A stretch of 20,000 bases of DNA from an uncultured virus (IMG/VR IMGVR_UViG_3300032046_001865) (IMGVR_UViG_3300032046_001865:52729-72728), one strand, 5' to 3'. Positions 1-14,048 are shown, numbered from the stretch's first letter. Made by a program: numbers and translations. Notes: generated by a model from the letters alone, not told the origin.

Positions 1-537
1 GTTGTGTTCTTCGACATCAGCAACCTGTTCTTCGGCGAACGCATCCGTCCGGGTTCGTTCATCATCACAGATCCTGCCATGTCGGGATCCAACGGTCGCG
101 TCTCCATTCGTCTTCAAGACGATGGCAACGGTGGGCTCTTTCGTGCTGACAGCGTCACGCAACGCGCCATGTGGAACCACGTCGGCAACGTCTTCTACGA
201 GGAAGGCGTTGTGGCTATCAAGTCACCCGCGTTACCGTTCTTCGGCGCCGAAGGGTTCGAGATCGAGTTCGAGGGTGAGAAGGCAGTGCACACGACAAAG
301 ATCAGCGTGCTTGTTGATGCGACATCGTACAACACGTCGTCGAACCCGTCGTGGAGCCCGACGATGTCAGCGTCCTTCGACGCGAACCGCGACCCTGAGA
401 ACCAGAAGTTCGTCACGGTCACCGGCGTCAACTTCCACGACGAGAACCTCAACGTCGTGATGCGCGCGCAGCTGGCGCAGCCCATCGTCAAGCGCAAAGG
501 CGACCGTTACCTGCTGCGGATCAAGTACGATTGGTGA
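1..537 (+). CDS. C-terminal part of a probable virion structural protein (tail/baseplate-like); 5' end lies outside the window
   Basis: The frame is open from base 1. The C-terminus VTGVNFHDENLNVVMRAQLAQPIVKR...RIKYDW resembles the 'IT.IGLY......AVAKL..PI.K' ending of large-phage structural proteins (recalled, not searched). Confidence 0.55.
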   Translation, partial: VVFFDISNLFFGERIRPGSFIITDPAMSGSNGRVSIRLQDDGNGGLFRADSVTQRAMWNHVGNVFYEEGVVAIKSPALPFFGAEGFEIEFEGEKAVHTTKISVLVDATSYNTSSNPSWSPTMSASFDANRDPENQKFVTVTGVNFHDENLNVVMRAQLAQPIVKRKGDRYLLRIKYDW

Positions 538-935
538 GAAAGCCTCGCCGCAAGCGCGTCAGCCGCAAAGCGAAACGCGGCGTCTACCGAGCGCTCAAGT
601 GCGTGCTGCCGATCAACTACCGATCCGGGTGGGAGCTCGAGTACGCGAAGTGGCTGGACGCCTGCCCGTCCGTGCTCTCGTACAAGTACGAGCCGTACGC
701 CGTCGGCTACGTCTCCAACATGAAGTCCGGGAAGCTGCGCAAGTACTACCCCGACTTCGAGGTGACGTACACGGACGGCACGAAGGCGCTCATCGAGATC
801 AAGCCGAAGAAGAAGGTGACGTTGGCGCGCAACGTGAAGAAGTTCGCGGCCGCGTCCGCGCATTGCCTGAAGCAAGGCATCGACTGGCGCGTCGTCACGG
901 AAGTGGACCTGAAAGCTCTAGGTTTGCTGAAGTGA
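531..935 (+). CDS. Head completion nuclease, T4 gp4-like / TnsA N-terminal PD-(D/E)XK endonuclease
   Basis: Motifs YRSGWE, WLD, YEP, YYPDF and LIEIKP, ending W.VVTE.DL. The start codon is uncertain (TTG 531 or GTG 534). Confidence 0.8.
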   Translation: MVRKPRRKRVSRKAKRGVYRALKCVLPINYRSGWELEYAKWLDACPSVLSYKYEPYAVGYVSNMKSGKLRKYYPDFEVTYTDGTKALIEIKPKKKVTLARNVKKFAAASAHCLKQGIDWRVVTEVDLKALGLLK

Positions 936-1486
936 GGATCCTCGGGCTTGACATCTCGACTTCGGTCGTCGGTTACGCCATCGTCGAGGCTGACGACATG
1001 AGCCTCGTGAAGATCGGGCACATCGACCTCAAGAAGGCGCCTAAATGCCTTTACCGCAAGGCCGACATCGTCGTCGGGAACCTTCGCGAAGTCTGTGAGG
1101 GCCTTGGGGTCGAACGGAAGTCCGTCTGGGTGGAGGAGCCGGTCATCCGCTTCACGCCTGGCATGTCTTCAGCCCAAACCATCTCGATGCTGCTGAAGTT
1201 CAACGCCATGGTGTCGTACGGCCTCTGGACGGGATGGGACCGCGAGATCGTCCACGTAACGCCTGGCGACGCTCGCCGCACGTGCGGGCTCCTGATGACG
1301 ACGAAGAAGAAGTCGGGCGGGAAATCGCAGAAGGAGCAGGTCTACGACCAGCTCACCGCCGTGGGCGGTTTGCTAGAGTTTCTTCCTTGGCCCATGACCA
1401 AGACGAACAAGCCAAAACCAGAGAATTACGATAGGGCTGACGCCTACGTGGTCGCGTACCACGGGGCGAAGGAGAGCCGCAAATGA
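932..1486 (+). CDS. RuvC-like Holliday junction resolvase
   Basis: The real start is GTG 932, overlapping the upstream TGA. MRILGLDISTSVVGYAIV carries the first catalytic Asp, followed by VWVEEP and C-terminal DRADAYVVA. The ORF-track extension from 599 is spurious. Confidence 0.85.
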   Translation: MRILGLDISTSVVGYAIVEADDMSLVKIGHIDLKKAPKCLYRKADIVVGNLREVCEGLGVERKSVWVEEPVIRFTPGMSSAQTISMLLKFNAMVSYGLWTGWDREIVHVTPGDARRTCGLLMTTKKKSGGKSQKEQVYDQLTAVGGLLEFLPWPMTKTNKPKPENYDRADAYVVAYHGAKESRK

Positions 1487-1659: not shown

Positions 1660-2645
1660 TAACCGTCTCGCAGAAGTACGAGCTGCTCGTGAAGCTGCTC
1701 GGGCCTGGCGACATCGACAGCCGCGCGATCAACGCGCAGTTCTGGTGCCCGTTCTGCAAGCACCACGACGCGAAGAAGCGCAAGCTGGCCGTCCGCCTCG
1801 CTGACGGCATCACACATTGCTGGGTGTGCAACTGGTCAGCGAAGAGCCCAACGCGGCTCGTTCCAGTCTTCGGCGCACGTCACCTGTTGGCCGAGCTCAC
1901 AGCTGCGTTCGGAGACGGAGGCACCGTCGTCGAGGATGAGCCGATTGAGAACGTCGCAGACGCCGAGTTGCCGTCCGACTTCTCGCTTGTGTGCGATGAG
2001 ATCGACAACGGCGTGCGCCACCCAGACAAGCTCGACGCCATCAGCTACCTCGAGAAGCGTGGCGTGTCGTACAGCACCGCCAAGTACCTTCGCCTCGGGT
2101 TGTCGACCACCGGAGCGTTCCGACGACGCGTCGTCTTCCCCTCGTTCGACGGCGACGGCGCGCTCAACTACGTCACCGCGCGAGCCATCGACGACGCGAC
2201 AACATTCAAGTACTTCAACACGCAGAGGCAACGCTCTGAGCTCGTGTTCAACGAGGTCGACGTGGCGTGGAACCGTGAGCTCATCCTTGTTGAAGGACCG
2301 TTTGACCTGACCGCTTGCGCTGGGATGAACGCGGTGCCGATGCTTGGCTCGTGGCTCGATGAGAATTACTTGCTGTTCAACCGCATCGTGCTCAACCGCA
2401 CGCCGGTGTGTCTCGCGTTTGATCCAGACGCAGCGAAGAAGCAGGCGAAGGTCGCGGCTCGCTTCCTACGCTACGAGATACCTGTGCGCACCGTTGATTG
2501 GACTGGGCATCCGCTCGATCATGATCCGTCCAAGGTTGGGCATGTAGCCTTCCGTCAGATGGTGAAGGCGGCGAAGACGTTTGACGAGACGACGGCCTTC
2601 CGGTCAAGACTGGCGCGAGCACTAGGTTCGATGAGGTTGACATGA
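1656..2645 (+). CDS. DNA primase (DnaG-like: zinc-binding domain plus TOPRIM)
   Basis: CPFC...HCWVC zinc finger, YLEKRG, RVVFP, LVEGPFD and FDPDA TOPRIM motifs. The likely start is GTG 1656, coupled to the upstream stop. Confidence 0.9.
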   Translation: MITVSQKYELLVKLLGPGDIDSRAINAQFWCPFCKHHDAKKRKLAVRLADGITHCWVCNWSAKSPTRLVPVFGARHLLAELTAAFGDGGTVVEDEPIENVADAELPSDFSLVCDEIDNGVRHPDKLDAISYLEKRGVSYSTAKYLRLGLSTTGAFRRRVVFPSFDGDGALNYVTARAIDDATTFKYFNTQRQRSELVFNEVDVAWNRELILVEGPFDLTACAGMNAVPMLGSWLDENYLLFNRIVLNRTPVCLAFDPDAAKKQAKVAARFLRYEIPVRTVDWTGHPLDHDPSKVGHVAFRQMVKAAKTFDETTAFRSRLARALGSMRLT

Positions 2646-3241
2646 AGATTGCACACATTGCCGATTTACATGTTCGTGGTCTCACACGTCACGATGAGGT
2701 TCGCACCGTCATCACAGCCTTCTGTGAGGATGCCAAACTACGACAGGTCGATCACATTGTCATCGCCGGCGATCTTTGGCACACGAAGACGTACGGCATG
2801 ACAGCTGAGTACTTCGAACTCATGACATGGATGCTGCGTTCGATGGCCGAGGTTGCACGCGTCCACGTCACGTTGGGTAACCACGACGGCGCGCTCACCA
2901 ACTTCTCAAGGCAGGACGCGATCAGCCCGATCGTTGACGCTATCGCTGACCCACGGATCAAGCTGTATAAGAAAAGCGGTGTGTACCCGATCCAAGACGG
3001 TGTCAATCTGTGTGTGTACAGCTTGTTTGACAAAGAAAGTTGGGATGCTGTTGGTCCTGTCGACGGCGATTACAACGTCGCAGTTTACCATGGCTCTGTC
3101 GGCGGTGCGGTGACAGAAGAGGGGTGGATCCTCAAGCATGACGTGACAGTCTCGTGGTTTGAGGACAAGAAGTACGACATCGTGCTGCTTGGAGACATAC
3201 ACAAGCAGCAGTACCTCGGGTACAGGGAGTACGAGGAGTGA
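2642..3241 (+). CDS. Mre11/SbcD-like (T4 gp47-like) metallophosphoesterase nuclease, N-terminal fragment
   Basis: Motifs ADLH, AGDLWH, LGNHD, YHG and LGDIH. The ORF stops before the expected Y-x-GS motif, which is found in 4116..6662. Confidence 0.9.
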   Translation: MKIAHIADLHVRGLTRHDEVRTVITAFCEDAKLRQVDHIVIAGDLWHTKTYGMTAEYFELMTWMLRSMAEVARVHVTLGNHDGALTNFSRQDAISPIVDAIADPRIKLYKKSGVYPIQDGVNLCVYSLFDKESWDAVGPVDGDYNVAVYHGSVGGAVTEEGWILKHDVTVSWFEDKKYDIVLLGDIHKQQYLGYREYEE

Positions 3242-4119
3242 AATCGTGCGCTCGTTGCTTGCAACCGCTCCGCGGAAGACAGAAAGTCTACTGCTCGCGA
3301 ACATGTCAAGCGAAAGCGTTAGGTGTCAAAAGCGCCTACATCGTTGTTCGTAATTGTGCGACGTGCGCCAAAGAATTGGTGATTCGGATTCGAAGTCGCG
3401 GCGAGAGCGATCGTGTGTACTGCTCGAAGAAGTGTTACGGGGTCCATCTGAGCGTTGCGTACGTCGGCGCCGCGAACCCGGGCGTCGGTCGAGTTCGTTC
3501 CGCGGAAGAAACCGCAAAGCGTTCCGAGTCGATGATAAGCAAATGGAACGACGAGACGTACCGAGCGAACGTGCAAGCTGGGCAGGCAGCGTTCGTCGAG
3601 CAGCACGGGCATTGGGGTGGCTCTGACATTCAAACGATCGAGAAACGACGTGCTACTTGTCGTGTTCGTTTTGGCGTTGATCACCCCTGGATGATCGAAT
3701 CGATCCGTGAAAAATGCGAAGTCACATCATTGAAACGTCACGGCAAGCTGACGTGGCAAATCGCGAAGGACGCGGTGCCGACTTCTGACACGCGACCCGA
3801 ACTGCGTTTCGCCGAAGCGCTCCGAGCGGCAAACATCACCCATGCTCACCCGTTCGACGTGTTCTACGACCAACGACGAAAGTTTGAGTACGACTTTTAC
3901 CTCCTCGGCAAGCGAACGCTCGTCGAAGTCGACGGGGATTACTGGCACGCTCACCCTGACAAATTTCCTGAGCTAGACGCGACACAGAAGTGGAATCGCG
4001 ATCACGATCTGAAGAAGAACGAGCTCGCCGAACGATTAGGCCTTCGATTGGTCAGAGTGTGGGAATCTGATGTGATGAACGAGGAACAATTGACGAAAGT
4101 AATCGAGGGCTTGCGATGA
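3238..4119 (+). mobile_element. Free-standing putative homing endonuclease (Vsr/DUF559/EDxHD-like C-terminal nuclease with Cys-rich and NUMOD-like DNA-binding modules)
   Basis: Two CxxC...YCSxxC modules, a NUMOD3-like helix (RSAEETAKRSESMISKW) and a TC.VRFGVDHP-type segment. The catalytic end reads TRPE...YDFYL...VEVDGDYWH...DLKKNELA...LVRVWESD. It lies between two halves of a nuclease domain. Confidence 0.8.
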
Positions 4120-6662
4120 AGAAGTTGATCCCTTGGATCGGATATGCGGGCAGCACTCTTCAGAACACGTACGCGGAAGATCTGGAACACGGTTATCTGC
4201 TTTGGGACGTCGACCTCGCCAAACGCAAGCACACCGTCGATTTCGTTGGCCTTCCTAACCCGCGTCCGTTCGTCACGGTGGATTGGGCAGGTGACGTTGT
4301 CTCAACTTTCGAATCTGCGTCCACCTGGCCTCAACAGAGCCGCTTCAGAATACGTTCGGCGTACGCGCTTCCGTCATCCGACGCAGCGTCTCTCAGCGCG
4401 AAGCTTCGCAAAGATAAGCAAGCTACCGAGATCGTCTTCAAGTCAAATGACGAGGAGTCGGCAAAGAAGTTCGCCTCAGCCAGCCTTGGCGTTGACGTGC
4501 GATCCCTTGACGCAGTCGAGGGTTTGCTGCGTGAATACTACTCCAGTGAGGAGTTAGACGACACGACATGGGATGGAATGCATGACGCGCTCGTGGCTGT
4601 CCACCCACAAGCCATAACTGAGGATGACATCGCTCGTGGGACCGTTTGGACTCTCAAAAGTTTGGAGTTCGACAACCTGTTTGGCTACGGAAGTTCTAGC
4701 AAGATCAACTTCGAGGACAAAGCAGGCATCGTTGGCATCTTTGGTCCAAACCAGATAGGAAAGTCTGGCATCGTTGGCGCCATCATGTACACGTTGTTCA
4801 ACACGTCGGATCGTGGCGCTGGCAAGAACGCGCACATCGTCAACAAGAGGAAGAAGCTTGGATCGGCGCGCGCCGTCGTGAACGTTGTAGGCTCAGACTA
4901 CGAGATCAAGCGACAGTCTGAGAAGGTCATCTCGCGTGGACTCCTCACAGCCAACACGTCTCTCACGTTGAAGCAGATGGACGGCGACGGGCTTGATCTC
5001 ACCGGAGAGCAGAGGCCGGACACTGAGAAGAATCTTCGCAAGCTGATCGGCAACTACGAGGATTTCGTCGTGACGTGTGGATCAATGCAGGACGACGTGT
5101 CACGTTTCCTTCGCGAAGGTGCCACGCAGCGTAAGGCGATCCTGTCGCGTTTCCTAGGCATAGACATCTTTGAAAAGATCTACGCACTGCTTAACAGCGA
5201 GCTCAGCGAGGCGAAGAGCAAACTCAAGAACGTTCCGTCGCGTGACGCGTTGCTGGATGAGATGAAGCAGCTCAACGAGCTGCAGACCACGTCTCACATT
5301 TCACTCTCTGCCAACGAAGTCGAGAAAGGGTTGTTGGATTCCCAACGCTCAGAAGCTTACGTTGAGATGCAGAACCTTGCAGCGGCTGTCGCCGTCAGAA
5401 AGGCTGTCGTCGAGAAGAACGACATAGTCAAACACGCGCTTTCTAAGATACAAGAATGCGCGAGCGCGATGCGTTCTGTGCAGACAGAGATAGACTCAAA
5501 GAAGACAAGCGTCGTTGTCGCCGAAGCACTCCTGAACGACTGTCTCACGTGGGACGAGATGGACGCTCGCCGCACGCAGATCGGCAACGCACGACTAGCC
5601 CTTCAGACGCTGAAGTCTGAAGCTGACAAGCAAGGGTTGGAACTGGAGCGCTCGAAGAAGATCGCGTTGAAGCTCGTGGATGTTCCTTGCGGGGATGAGT
5701 ACGCGGATTGCGTCTACATCAAGGATGCTCACAAAGAGAAGAAGCGGATCGCGACGCTAGAGGAGCAATTTCGTGTGGCGCTGGATGAGCATGCGACTGC
5801 TGCGAACTTGATCGCTGACCTCGGTGAGAGTGACCTTGATCTCGCTCGAAAGACGCGAAAAGGACATGAGGAGAGCATTGTTTCTCTCAACTTCCACATC
5901 AACGCTCACGAGTCAAAACTGAAACAACTCGGTGAGGAACACGACAAAGCGAAGGCAAGCGCTGCGAAGTACGCGACCATCTCGTTGGACGACAGCGACA
6001 TCGAAGAACGACACGCAGCAGCCATCGCGCTGCATAAGCGATTGACCCTTGATCTAACGAGCGTGGATGGACACATGAAGACCACCTCGCATTTGCTAGG
6101 CATTTACGAGGCAAACCTGAAGAAGGCGCAGTCAGATCTCGACATGCGAGTCACGCTCGAGCGTCAAGCCCGTGTTCGTGAACTGCTTGTGAACGCGTTC
6201 TCACGTCGTGGCATCCCCAACGTCATGTTAGGCAGGATGTTGCCGGTCGTGAACAGTGAGATGAGCAAGATCCTTAGCGGCGTGACCAACTTCAACGTCA
6301 CGCTCGTGGCGGAGGATGCGACCAACGCACTTGAGATCTACATCGACGATGGAGACACAAGCAAGGAGAGCCTTCGTCCGCTCGAACTCGGTTCTGGCAT
6401 GGAGAAGACGATGGCGTCTCTAGCGCTCAGAGTCGCGCTGAGCAACCTCACGACTCTCCCCAAGACTGACTTCATGATCATCGACGAGGGTTTCGGCTCG
6501 CTTGACGACGAGAACGCTGTGGCATGCGTGTCGTTGATCCGTTCACTCAAGCAATGGTTCCGTTTCGTGCTTATCATCAGTCACGTGGACATCATCAAAG
6601 ACGCTGTAGATTGTCACATAAATGTTGTGACAACACCCGACGGAGCGCAGGTGGTAGCGTGA
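4116..6662 (+). CDS. Fusion of the Mre11/SbcD C-terminal portion with a Rad50/SbcC (T4 gp46-like) SMC-family ATPase
   Basis: N-terminus WIGYAGSTLQNTYAE...GYLLWD (the SbcD Y-x-GS region). Then Walker A GPNQIGKS, Q-loop SMQ, coiled coil with a Cys pair, signature GSGMEK, Walker B/D-loop IIDEGFGSLD and H-loop ISH. A GAGGG SD-like sequence and an ATGA overlap mark the start. Confidence 0.9.
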   Translation: MKKLIPWIGYAGSTLQNTYAEDLEHGYLLWDVDLAKRKHTVDFVGLPNPRPFVTVDWAGDVVSTFESASTWPQQSRFRIRSAYALPSSDAASLSAKLRKDKQATEIVFKSNDEESAKKFASASLGVDVRSLDAVEGLLREYYSSEELDDTTWDGMHDALVAVHPQAITEDDIARGTVWTLKSLEFDNLFGYGSSSKINFEDKAGIVGIFGPNQIGKSGIVGAIMYTLFNTSDRGAGKNAHIVNKRKKLGSARAVVNVVGSDYEIKRQSEKVISRGLLTANTSLTLKQMDGDGLDLTGEQRPDTEKNLRKLIGNYEDFVVTCGSMQDDVSRFLREGATQRKAILSRFLGIDIFEKIYALLNSELSEAKSKLKNVPSRDALLDEMKQLNELQTTSHISLSANEVEKGLLDSQRSEAYVEMQNLAAAVAVRKAVVEKNDIVKHALSKIQECASAMRSVQTEIDSKKTSVVVAEALLNDCLTWDEMDARRTQIGNARLALQTLKSEADKQGLELERSKKIALKLVDVPCGDEYADCVYIKDAHKEKKRIATLEEQFRVALDEHATAANLIADLGESDLDLARKTRKGHEESIVSLNFHINAHESKLKQLGEEHDKAKASAAKYATISLDDSDIEERHAAAIALHKRLTLDLTSVDGHMKTTSHLLGIYEANLKKAQSDLDMRVTLERQARVRELLVNAFSRRGIPNVMLGRMLPVVNSEMSKILSGVTNFNVTLVAEDATNALEIYIDDGDTSKESLRPLELGSGMEKTMASLALRVALSNLTTLPKTDFMIIDEGFGSLDDENAVACVSLIRSLKQWFRFVLIISHVDIIKDAVDCHINVVTTPDGAQVVA

Positions 6663-6859
6663 TTCGTCAGTGGAAACGAAAGGGATCGCCTGTCAACAGG
6701 CCAAACCTCTTCTGTCCCAAGTGTGATCGGTGCATGTACACAAAAGAAGATGTGCGCTCTCGTGAAGAACGCGGATTTTGTGCGAAGTGCTCAGAAACAT
6801 CTGTCACATCCGAGTATCAGACGGATGTCGTCACCATCGTTATCCGTGAAGGTGCCTAA
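6659..6859 (+). CDS. Small CxxC-CxxC zinc-ribbon hypothetical protein (66 aa)
   Basis: GTGA overlap with the Rad50 stop; contains FCPKC and GFCAKC. Confidence 0.65.
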   Translation: MIRQWKRKGSPVNRPNLFCPKCDRCMYTKEDVRSREERGFCAKCSETSVTSEYQTDVVTIVIREGA

Positions 6860-6873
6860 CTATCGTTAATAAC

Positions 6874-7326
6874 ATGGCTGACAAGAACATCGATCTGAAC
6901 GCGCTTGGGCAGGCAATCGACACGTCGTTCACACGTTCGAGCGCTTCGTACGGTCCGGCTTTTGAGACACACTCCATCAAGGTGGGGTTCGCTCACGGTG
7001 ACAAACTGAAGATCAAGGTTGTCTACTCCTGTGTGGTGAACATGGTTCGTGATCGTGACATCCAGGAATCGAAGACGACGTACGAAAAAGAAGGCGACGC
7101 TTACATCGACGCCGCCTCGAAACAGATCGTCAAGGATTACCGTGAGATCGTCGCAGGCGAGGATGATCACAACGACGTTGCCGATATCGCAGGCAACGAA
7201 GTGAAGTCAAGCATCAAGCTCACGCGCGCTGACGTTGGCACCTCCATCGAGATCATCGATCTCAACATTCACAACAACAAGAGGTCTGCGCTCTTCCGAC
7301 GTATTGCCTTCTTCGAAGTGACTTGA
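6874..7326 (+). CDS. Hypothetical protein immediately upstream of the terminase
   Basis: 150 aa ORF with codon style like its neighbours; fills the gap. Confidence 0.7.
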   Translation: MADKNIDLNALGQAIDTSFTRSSASYGPAFETHSIKVGFAHGDKLKIKVVYSCVVNMVRDRDIQESKTTYEKEGDAYIDAASKQIVKDYREIVAGEDDHNDVADIAGNEVKSSIKLTRADVGTSIEIIDLNIHNNKRSALFRRIAFFEVT

Positions 7327-13146: not shown

Positions 13147-13569
13147 ATGAGCCTTAACAACGTCCGCCCTGGATTCAACGCCGCAGCCGAGTACATGGTT
13201 TCTGGCATCCCTCACGTTCTTAGCGGGTCGGCAACCGGTTCGGCTGCTGGGACAAAGATCGAGTTCGATTACGTCTCACGTGCCATCACTGTTGCGAACA
13301 ACGCGTCTGCTGGCACTGTGTTGCTCGTTGGTTTCACCAACAACGGCATCAACGGCACGAACTGCTTCCCGTTGGATGGCGGCAAGGTTCAACGTTTCGA
13401 GGTTCGTGTGCGTGACCTATGGCTCAAAGGCCAAGCTGGCACCAACGTCAACTTTGGTGTGCTTGCAGAACTCACAACCATCGAACGCATGTACGCGCTT
13501 CCCTTGACAGGATCTGCGGTGTCGCAGAACGAGCTCACCGGCTCGATCATCTGGCGCGGCGTCGGTTGA
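13147..13569 (+). CDS. Hypothetical beta-rich protein, probably a virion component
   Basis: 140 aa Gly/Ser/Thr/Asn-rich ORF in the head cluster with AAGGA upstream. Confidence 0.65.
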   Translation: MSLNNVRPGFNAAAEYMVSGIPHVLSGSATGSAAGTKIEFDYVSRAITVANNASAGTVLLVGFTNNGINGTNCFPLDGGKVQRFEVRVRDLWLKGQAGTNVNFGVLAELTTIERMYALPLTGSAVSQNELTGSIIWRGVG

Positions 13570-14048
13570 TCAGGCTTGTACGTCATCCCGACCCTCGCCT
13601 GAAGCAACCTTGTCGTGAGGTCTCTCTGTCTGAACAAGGTGAACTTCGCGCGTTCGTTGACGGCATGCTGGATGTCATGTACACTAACGAAGGCGTTGGT
13701 CTAGCCGCTCCACAGGTGGGATGGAACGTTCGCGTGATCATCATCGATCCTTCAAATGGCGAAGATGATAAAGCATGTCGCGTCATGATCAACCCGGTGT
13801 TGGTCAACGTCTCGCCAGCTAACGAGGAGTGTATGGAAGGTTGTCTCTCTTTACCGGGCGAGCTTTACAACGTTGAAAGACCTTGTTTCGCGTTAGCACG
13901 ATGGCAAGATCTTGAAGGGAAAAATCAAGAATCTTGGTTCTCTGGACCAGAGGCACGCATTTTTTTGCACGAACTTGATCACCTTTTGGGCAAGTTGATC
14001 AGTGATGTTGGAACGAGAGCTACACTTAAGCATCGTGAAGATCGGTAA
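13566..14048 (+). CDS. def: Peptide deformylase
   Basis: All three PDF motifs are present: GVGLAAPQVG, EGCLS and HELDH. The likely start is TTG 13566 (MIRLVRHPDPRL), overlapping the upstream TGA. Confidence 0.95.
   Translation: MIRLVRHPDPRLKQPCREVSLSEQGELRAFVDGMLDVMYTNEGVGLAAPQVGWNVRVIIIDPSNGEDDKACRVMINPVLVNVSPANEECMEGCLSLPGELYNVERPCFALARWQDLEGKNQESWFSGPEARIFLHELDHLLGKLISDVGTRATLKHREDR

Follow-up and report, generated by a model that had tools for sequence, protein, structure and literature searches.

A split Mre11-Rad50 fusion gene with a predicted Vsr-like homing endonuclease gene between its halves in an uncultured phage

The stretch of DNA analysed here (hereafter the window) is 20,000 nucleotides (nt) long and forms the end of a 72.7-kb record of a large uncultured phage found in sediment metagenomes (IMG/VR IMGVR_UViG_3300032046_001865, positions 52729-72728; estimated to be ~20% complete). 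On its plus strand, three consecutive open reading frames (ORFs) hold a recombination nuclease gene of the Mre11-Rad50 (SbcD-SbcC) type in two parts, with an endonuclease gene between them. The first ORF, fragment 1 (2642..3241), encodes the N-terminal 199 amino acids (aa) of an SbcD/Mre11 phosphoesterase domain, including motifs I-V, and closes with a 4-aa acidic end, EYEE (..GDIHKQQYLGYREYEE*). The second (3238..4119) is a free-standing gene for a predicted homing endonuclease of 293 aa. The third, fragment 3 (4116..6662), encodes 848 aa and begins MKKLIPWIGYAGSTLQNTYAEDLEHGYLLWD / MKKLIPWIGYAGS: residues 1-175 (4116..4640) comprise a basic head (MKKLI), the remainder of SbcD/Mre11 (PWIGYAGS..Q..Y.E....GY.LW) and a capping region, and residues 179-848 (4650..6662) form an SbcC/Rad50-type ATPase with a coiled coil.

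The three ORFs lie in three different frames (starts at 2642, 3238 and 4116, or 2, 1 and 0 modulo 3), and there are zero non-coding bases between the two halves, as everything that separates them is endonuclease coding sequence. At the first junction (GTGA), the endonuclease GTG start (3238-3240) overlaps the fragment 1 TGA stop (3239-3241); at the second (ATGA), the fragment 3 ATG (4116-4118) overlaps the endonuclease TGA (4117-4119). Both downstream starts follow a Shine-Dalgarno-like sequence on the same strand: AGGGAG (3224..3229), located 8 nt 5' of the endonuclease GTG within the Y-R-E codons of fragment 1, and GAGGG (4105..4109), located 6 nt 5' of the fragment 3 ATG within the last endonuclease codons. 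This arrangement of frames, overlaps and ribosome-binding sequences had been described in a first-pass annotation of the window and is confirmed here. The GAGGG site is kept in two relatives (L008 and L009, discussed below) that have only stubs of the endonuclease gene; in a third, L007, it reads GAGGA. A consensus scan of 2400-4400 detected 0 promoter-like sites and 3 terminator-like sites (2.3 expected), which is compatible with a single transcript.

Fragment 1 aligns with positions 1-190 of the 191 in the Pfam Metallophos profile (PF00149, E 1.4e-13) and also matches phrog_100, an SbcD-like subunit. The metal-ligand columns (D8, H10, D44, N80, H81, H150, D185 and H187) are invariant in 56 relatives, and all of them fall within this fragment. 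Residues 179-846 of fragment 3 match phrog_77 (3.3e-48), SMC_N (2.6e-11) and SbcC_Walker_B (3.1e-06), and Walker A, signature and Walker B strings can be read from the 848-aa translation. This ATPase identifies the interrupted gene as an Mre11-Rad50 fusion and not a stand-alone Mre11 gene: the first-pass annotation had rightly placed the break in the nuclease domain but did not mention the ATPase. Uninterrupted homologues are 1066 aa long in Microcystis phage Mel-JY01 and 1202 aa long in LR756501, and a primase gene lies upstream in both Mel-JY01 and the window. Fragments 1 and 3 are collinear with the two parts of the uninterrupted homologue. The one-chain form does not occur in the window, where the break falls inside the Mre11 part and the Rad50 part is still joined to the last ~175 aa of Mre11.

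We compared 88 loci that contain both halves: three phage records, five close IMG/VR relatives, 79 others (from 80 kept out of 234 relatives recovered with a fragment 1 profile) and the window itself. LR756501 (L002) and L004 were excluded because one or both halves gave no tblastn match. The gene is uninterrupted at 65 of the 88 loci and split at 23, proportions that are biased because the sample was picked by similarity. An uninterrupted GDIH...Y-x-GS allele, which had been suggested as something to look for among related phages, is thus common in this set. The loop from GDIH to Y.GS in the 65 uninterrupted genes is 12 aa long in 33, 15 aa in 11 and 20 aa in 18, with rarer lengths of 24 aa (one gene) and 45-47 aa (two genes). 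By alignment with uninterrupted relatives such as ..LGYRDGKPWIGYPGT and ..GDIHKQQFLGYRDGKPWIGYPGT.., the break in the window maps between ..LGYR(D/E) and (K)PWIGY.GS. The wide variation in loop length (12 to 47 aa) indicates that the break site is tolerant, in agreement with the first-pass annotation.

The protein encoded between the halves (293 aa) matches the 'homing endonuclease' family phrog_3339 (1.6e-14) as well as phrog_559 (4.7e-13), and has weak Pfam matches to Vsr (0.0091), MTES_1575 and DUF7487. Its N-terminal region (3238..3460) carries two Cys motifs, C..C...YCS..C, presumably a zinc-ribbon-like DNA-binding part: C40, C43, C62 and C66 are invariant in the endonuclease homologues, residues 2-74 match phrog_1271, and the N terminus gives a weak SAP-like match (1jjr, E 0.0015) and weak MYND zinc-finger rows (E 0.7-0.8). 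The C-terminal Vsr-like/EDxHD nuclease domain (3775..4116, residues ~180-293) contains E230, D232, H237 and D257, which are invariant across seven homologues. An AlphaFold2 model built from these seven homologues has a mean predicted local distance difference test (pLDDT) score of 69.8, with values of 71-91 over the last 110 residues. When the modelled fold was searched against the PDB with Foldseek, the top match was the catalytic domain of I-Bth0305I (3r3p; E 1.5e-3, just outside the Foldseek line of 0.001; probability 1.00; template modelling [TM] score 0.69 on the target), and Vsr structures came next in the list (1cw0, E 4.8e-3, and 1vsr). The insert is a predicted Vsr-like/EDxHD homing endonuclease. 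The phrog_3339 and 3r3p matches, together with the collinear homologues, bear out its earlier description as a free-standing Vsr-like endonuclease between two halves of a nuclease domain. Viral contigs contain 153 relatives of its nuclease domain, as many as five of them on a single contig of 168 kb, which is the usual pattern for mobile endonucleases. Full-length homologues (29-30% identity) are found at the same site in the split sbcD genes of two very distant, AT-rich phages (L092 and L105).

The closest relatives of the locus form a clade consisting of the window and five IMG/VR sequences (54-74% identity), which is monophyletic with a support of 100 in a FastTree phylogeny; the nearest groups outside this clade include uninterrupted genes. 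All clade members are split at the same codon, and both frames are open in all six. The state of the endonuclease gene differs among them. L006 and L007, which are near-identical, keep an endonuclease of 298 aa. In L009, the deepest branch, only the first ~125 nt and the last ~45 nt of the gene remain, and in L008 only a decayed form of its last ~190 nt. The endonuclease is gone from L005. The last residues of its fragment 1 are ..GYREYK, and an ATGA overlap joins the stop to the start of MKLVPWIGYPGS; here the AGGGAG hexamer, which serves the endonuclease in the window, sits 5 nt before the fragment 3 ATG. The stubs in L008 and L009 show that loss followed insertion, and the endonuclease was therefore present at the base of the clade. 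It has since disappeared on at least three occasions, each time in a different way, and in no case was the split repaired. According to the first-pass annotation, relatives split at the same site but lacking the endonuclease would mean that the split predates the insertion. Such relatives do exist (L005, L008, L009 and 16 further loci described below), which counts in part against that annotation; for the window's clade, the stubs indicate loss after insertion instead.

L006 and L007 also share, with identical sequence, 184 extra nt between the fragment 1 stop and the endonuclease start (L007 4921..5112) that are absent from the window. In L007 this segment is predicted to form a strong hairpin (minimum free energy -67 kcal/mol, z -2.54, equalled by 1 of 200 shuffles). 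Dassa et al. 2009 (Nucleic Acids Res 37:2560, PMC2677866) mention hairpins that precede endonuclease ORFs of this type.

Ratios of nonsynonymous to synonymous substitution rates (dN/dS) within the clade, which are rough because dS is saturated (it exceeds 1.3, and for 14 of 30 pair comparisons no value could be computed), are 0.09-0.13 for fragment 1 (3 of 10 pairs with computable dS), 0.13-0.30 for fragment 3 (6 of 10 pairs) and 0.055-0.20 for its first 175 codons (7 of 10 pairs). Both halves are thus under purifying selection. The dN/dS of the endonuclease, calculated between the window and L007, is 0.08.

A second allele of the locus coexists with the endonuclease-bearing allele in a natural population. 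In run X3, an independent sediment metagenome not flagged as the source of the record, depth is ~13 over the flanks and ~4-5 over the endonuclease; one contig leaves the window sequence after 3232 and another rejoins it at 4230. The two alleles are identical outside this allele-variable segment (3233..4229, no strand assigned), and the divergent patch takes in the first 38 codons of fragment 3. In the second allele, ..TACGAG is followed at once by a stop codon, which an ATG may overlap; an ORF would start there. Of the 30-nt strings at the two loose ends, the first had no match in viral and metagenome contigs and the second none in metagenome contigs; compared with all the related loci collected here, both gave only chance matches of 10-12 nt. 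In runs X4 and X5, coverage extends to only 7 of the 30 bins, and none of the 13 runs listed for the locus is an RNA dataset.

As the first-pass annotation had proposed, the two halves were folded together. The input consisted of fragment 1 and residues 1-178 of fragment 3, each as a 56-row alignment. The interface score (ipSAE) was 0.91 in 3 of 3 runs, compared with 0.19 for the best control, with at least 97% contact agreement and a partner pLDDT of at least 75; in the calibration, 116 of 157 solved complexes passed the mark, as did 2 of 215 mismatched pairs, although these counts are only rough with custom alignments. Contacts are modelled between fragment 1 residues 1-10 and 178-199 and fragment 3 residues 1-15 and 25-32, and in the model they rebuild the core sheet of the phosphoesterase. 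The new ends carry opposite charges: EYEE in the window has a charge of -3, and 20 of 21 split loci combine a net acidic tail with a net basic head.

Outside the clade, 16 of the split loci have a second kind of break, with longer ends. In these 'long-tail' loci, fragment 1 ends ..R(D/E)VE(L/I)EIDE.DL.KYPGAEVIG, its stop overlaps the next start as NTGA, GAGGTGAT lies inside the AEVIG codons, and fragment 3 starts M(S/G)K(K/R)IKI(R/K)VK(K/R)PW. Fragment-1-sized relatives in the protein database (109-349 aa) number 103, comprising 47 short-tail, 44 long-tail, 8 reading on and 4 partial sequences; 2 of the 44 long-tail clusters are partial or read-through forms. L092 and L105 have a tail and head of the long type with the full-length endonuclease homologue between them. 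Their downstream piece (L092 3873..4100, L105 3897..4121) is just 74-75 aa long and holds only two core strands, such that the gene is in at least three pieces, with further genes before the ATPase part. In L105 these include two unrelated ORFs (152 and 116 aa), after which the gene pieces continue at 5057... L021 and L032 have a stop ~171-173 codons into the downstream frame, where SbcD meets SbcC, which may mark either another break or a pair of separate genes. In LR756508, a similar tail and head flank a 305-aa ORF that shares the Cys region but has a TnsA-like nuclease domain. This ORF had been considered a copy of the window's endonuclease (E 2e-4), an assignment that was rejected because its C-terminal domain (P0002 residues 194-298) matches, at many loci, the conserved TnsA-like phage gene that the window has at 531..935.

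The long-tail state requires at least three to four changes on the gene tree, and L024 is nested among uninterrupted genes. A co-conversion test of L024 with 10 windows, including 40-residue ones beside the break, detected no transferred flank: in every one of the 10, L024 is nearer to L030, L023 and L037, three of the four uninterrupted genes in its sister group, than to any long-tail locus; the fourth, L029, draws level with the best long-tail row only in the first window past the break. In an AlphaFold2 model of the L084 domain (mean pLDDT 87), in which long tail and head are joined in one frame, the 45-aa loop consists of a strand, a short helix and two further strands; this would fit a hairpin arm broken at its tip, if the strands pair accordingly. 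The long-tail break may have any of three origins: tail and head travelling with an endonuclease, an older loop, or a frameshift.

We consider that insertion of an endonuclease gene split this Mre11-Rad50 gene and that the halves reassemble, a reading to which we assign a probability of roughly 0.7. Under it, a free-standing Vsr-like (EDxHD) endonuclease gene would have landed in the loop that follows metal-binding motif V (GDIH). The three genes would be translationally coupled through the GTGA and ATGA overlaps and the AGGGAG and GAGGG sequences, and the phage would make two pieces, one of 199 aa that has every metal ligand and one of 848 aa that supplies the final two core strands, the cap and the ATPase. 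Their reassembly would be non-covalent: strand 1 of fragment 1 would pair with ..YLLWD in fragment 3, and at the new ends acidic EYEE would lie beside basic MKKLI. We infer that the endonuclease spreads through cleavage of uninterrupted alleles, whose repair would then copy its gene into them; indirect evidence for such homing is the presence of this endonuclease family at the same site in distant phages and the two alleles in run X3. The reassembled halves would be active; after fixation the endonuclease would decay while the gene remained in two pieces.

Several points weigh against this account. The nuclease fold match noted above misses the Foldseek line, a single-sequence PDB search with the endonuclease gave 0 matches at E up to 1, and a profile PDB search returned no nuclease, only the SAP-like row and two weak zinc-finger rows. 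The tree was built with FastTree only, and the dN/dS ratios are subject to the saturation described above. A passing co-fold is to be expected for two halves of a well-known fold with many solved relatives, and it may reflect that likeness alone rather than binding. The halves abut at the 16 long-tail loci with no trace of an endonuclease, so a break without an endonuclease is possible; the window's endonuclease forms only six clusters, against 47 short-tail and 44 long-tail fragment 1 clusters, so that most split alleles are without one. Finally, in L057 and L084 a single frame carries both the long tail and the head, and L013 differs from L084 by an extra T where its stop and overlapping start lie.

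These last points are the substance of an alternative that we regard as unlikely but by far the strongest: the gene broke first, for example when a frameshift at the tip of a long surface loop gave it a stop with a start overlapping it, and endonucleases later colonised the junction. A break by frameshift alone is possible in an L013-type long-tail locus, to judge from the extra T, and it is this difference that lets the alternative retain its weight. It also accommodates the in-codon GAGGTGAT of the 16 loci with NTGA overlaps, the TnsA-like nuclease domain that occupies the same junction in LR756508, as expected of a landing site, and the tendency of free-standing endonucleases to sit between genes. 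It accounts less well for the stubs of the window's endonuclease in the deepest branches of the clade, for a clade tail and head of only 4-5 aa with an endonuclease whose start and stop overlap both halves, and for the presence of the same endonuclease family, with a homologous tail and head, in L092 and L105. Likewise, the repeated changes of the long-tail state on the tree and the position of L024 fit a mobile cassette better than one old break. The endonuclease is therefore the likely cause of the split rather than a later coloniser. Within the window's clade the stubs show loss after insertion; at the 16 long-tail loci either event may have come first.

Two other explanations carry far less weight. 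That the split killed the gene, leaving its pieces as decaying pseudogenes, is highly improbable: the additional downstream stop in L021 and L032 might be taken for such decay, but the ligand columns are invariant in 56 sequences, dN/dS lies between 0.055 and 0.30, the frames are open in all six clade members despite identities of only 54-74%, and the split form recurs in ~90 protein clusters. Least probable of all is a restored single polypeptide, whether through an intron, an intein or ribosomal bypassing. Solutions of this kind are common for endonuclease-invaded phage genes in published accounts, but none was found here. An Rfam scan of 2000-7000 at E up to 10 yielded three chance-level rows, the best an unrelated viral hairpin at E 0.1, and an Rfam intron scan at the gathering score found nothing in L003, L007, L008, L009, L092 and L105. 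With no intron match in these scans and no non-coding room for it, an intron was rejected, an undescribed ribozyme being a formal possibility only. An intein was rejected too: no Hint or intein family appears in the Pfam scan, the three ORFs are in three frames, and the new ends are only 4-5 aa long. The strongest point against splicing is that relatives without the insert are still in two genes (L005 and the 16 other loci), overlapping by 4 nt and each half with its own start codon. The first-pass annotation had excluded both an intron and an intein and had advised an Infernal-type intron scan; the Rfam search, which gave no intron, upholds it.

The insertion reading places the locus among published events of the same kind (2009-2011), as a further case and not as a new principle. 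The closest precedent is that of Dassa et al. 2009 (PMC2677866), who reported a single locus in the Lake Gatun sample of the Global Ocean Sampling (GOS) data in which an SbcD-like gene has a Vsr-like endonuclease ORF between its parts; a split of this type, which the first-pass annotation did not know to have been described for Mre11/gp47, was thus already in print. As in the window, the Dassa locus has two ORFs, no split intein, extra residues at both new ends and an overlap between the endonuclease and the downstream gene. Its 25-aa tail and 9-aa head resemble those of L092, L105 and the 16 long-tail loci, whereas the ends in the window are 4-5 aa long. Full-text literature searches found no later paper on an SbcD/Mre11 split. 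The present analysis adds the fusion nature of the host gene, the 65 uninterrupted and 23 split loci, the decay series within the clade and the two coexisting alleles. Particular to the window locus are its minimal ends of 4-5 aa, the coupling by a double overlap, the in-clade decay series and the two-allele population.

The precedents named in the first-pass annotation, nrdA/mobE of Aeromonas phage Aeh1 and genes 39/60 with mobA of T4, are apt. In Aeh1 (nrdA-a/mobE/nrdA-b), as in the window, a free-standing endonuclease splits an essential enzyme gene in its catalytic region, the new tails have opposite charges, splicing occurs at neither the RNA nor the protein level, and the endonuclease and downstream genes overlap. 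Crona et al. 2011 (Nucleic Acids Res 39:1381, PMC3045599) showed that split Aeh1 NrdA cannot do without the oppositely charged tails to which the insertion of mobE gave rise, and they also pointed to T4 gp39/gp60. The Aeh1 system differs in its host enzyme and in its endonuclease, mobE being of the HNH type according to that paper, and its polarity is the reverse of the window's, with a basic upstream tail and an acidic downstream one. The Aeh1 tails were proven essential by experiment, while the ends in the window are known from sequence and a model.

The prototype EDxHD (Vsr-like) homing endonuclease is I-Bth0305I (Taylor et al. 2011, Nucleic Acids Res 39:9705, PMC3239194), which shares with the window enzyme a C-terminal Vsr-like nuclease domain; the invariant E230, D232, H237 and D257 of the window enzyme are a candidate counterpart of the conserved E, D, H and D set of that family, which in I-Bth0305I includes D196, H213 and D222. 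I-Bth0305I is encoded in a recA group I intron and has N-terminal NUMOD/helix-turn-helix motifs, whereas the window enzyme is free-standing and has the two Cys motifs and weak SAP-like match; no NUMOD or helix-turn-helix family appeared in its Pfam scan. The window enzyme thus seems, from its sequence, to carry a different DNA-binding module on an EDxHD-type nuclease domain. For the host gene, Yoshida et al. 2011 (Virol J 8:427, PMC3175470) described Mre11/Rad50 fusions of the Mimivirus R555 type as abundant in aquatic viral metagenomes. Like the uninterrupted relatives of the window, these have an N-terminal Mre11-like and a C-terminal Rad50-like part, and primase and endonuclease genes are neighbours on R555-type phage-like scaffolds as in the window. 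The word 'split' is absent from the main text of that paper, and the likeness of the window's family to these fusions is one of architecture.

The locus illustrates how an essential enzyme could survive a selfish gene's cut in its catalytic domain without splicing. The clade series (intact endonuclease, two different stubs and clean loss, with the split always kept) is unusually complete and could be used to test whether gene fission is irreversible. The host enzyme is the kind of recombination nuclease that T4-type phages use to process double-strand breaks, and the element may therefore sit in a gene whose product helps it to spread. The locus is of value as a well-documented example and as a source of natural split points for Mre11-Rad50 engineering. 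A more speculative proposal, which we hold to be doubtful, is that the endonuclease travels with a 'fracture-healing' kit, bringing a short acidic strand and a stop on its upstream side and, on its downstream side, a ribosome-binding site, a start and a basic strand. An insertion into coding sequence would in that case produce, in a single event, two coupled halves able to assemble by themselves, and the death of the endonuclease would leave either permanent gene fission or re-fusion into a longer loop. Many 'uninterrupted' relatives, with their loops of 15 to 47 aa, would then bear the scars of fractures that had healed, and in a large family of aquatic phages this one site would have undergone repeated breaking and mending.

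Other genes were noted in the window and at related loci. The window also contains T4-type terminase, portal, protease and major head genes. Upstream of the primase gene, a TnsA-like endonuclease of 134 aa is encoded at 531..935 (+) (PF08722, 5e-17); it also matches phrog_218, labelled 'head closure', and is kept in relatives (e.g. L008 3081..3479 and L009 2779..3186). The following ORF (959..1486, +; 175 aa, starting MRILGLDISTS..) is conserved in L007-L009 and resembles a RuvC-type resolvase by eye only, with no PHROG family matched at 1e-5. Between this resolvase-like gene and the primase, L009 has a 121-aa ORF (3700..4065, +), a candidate for a further inserted gene, which is missing at that place from the window, L007 and L008. 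Amid its head genes, the window encodes a peptide deformylase (phrog_2890, 7.7e-32) at 13419..14048 (+).

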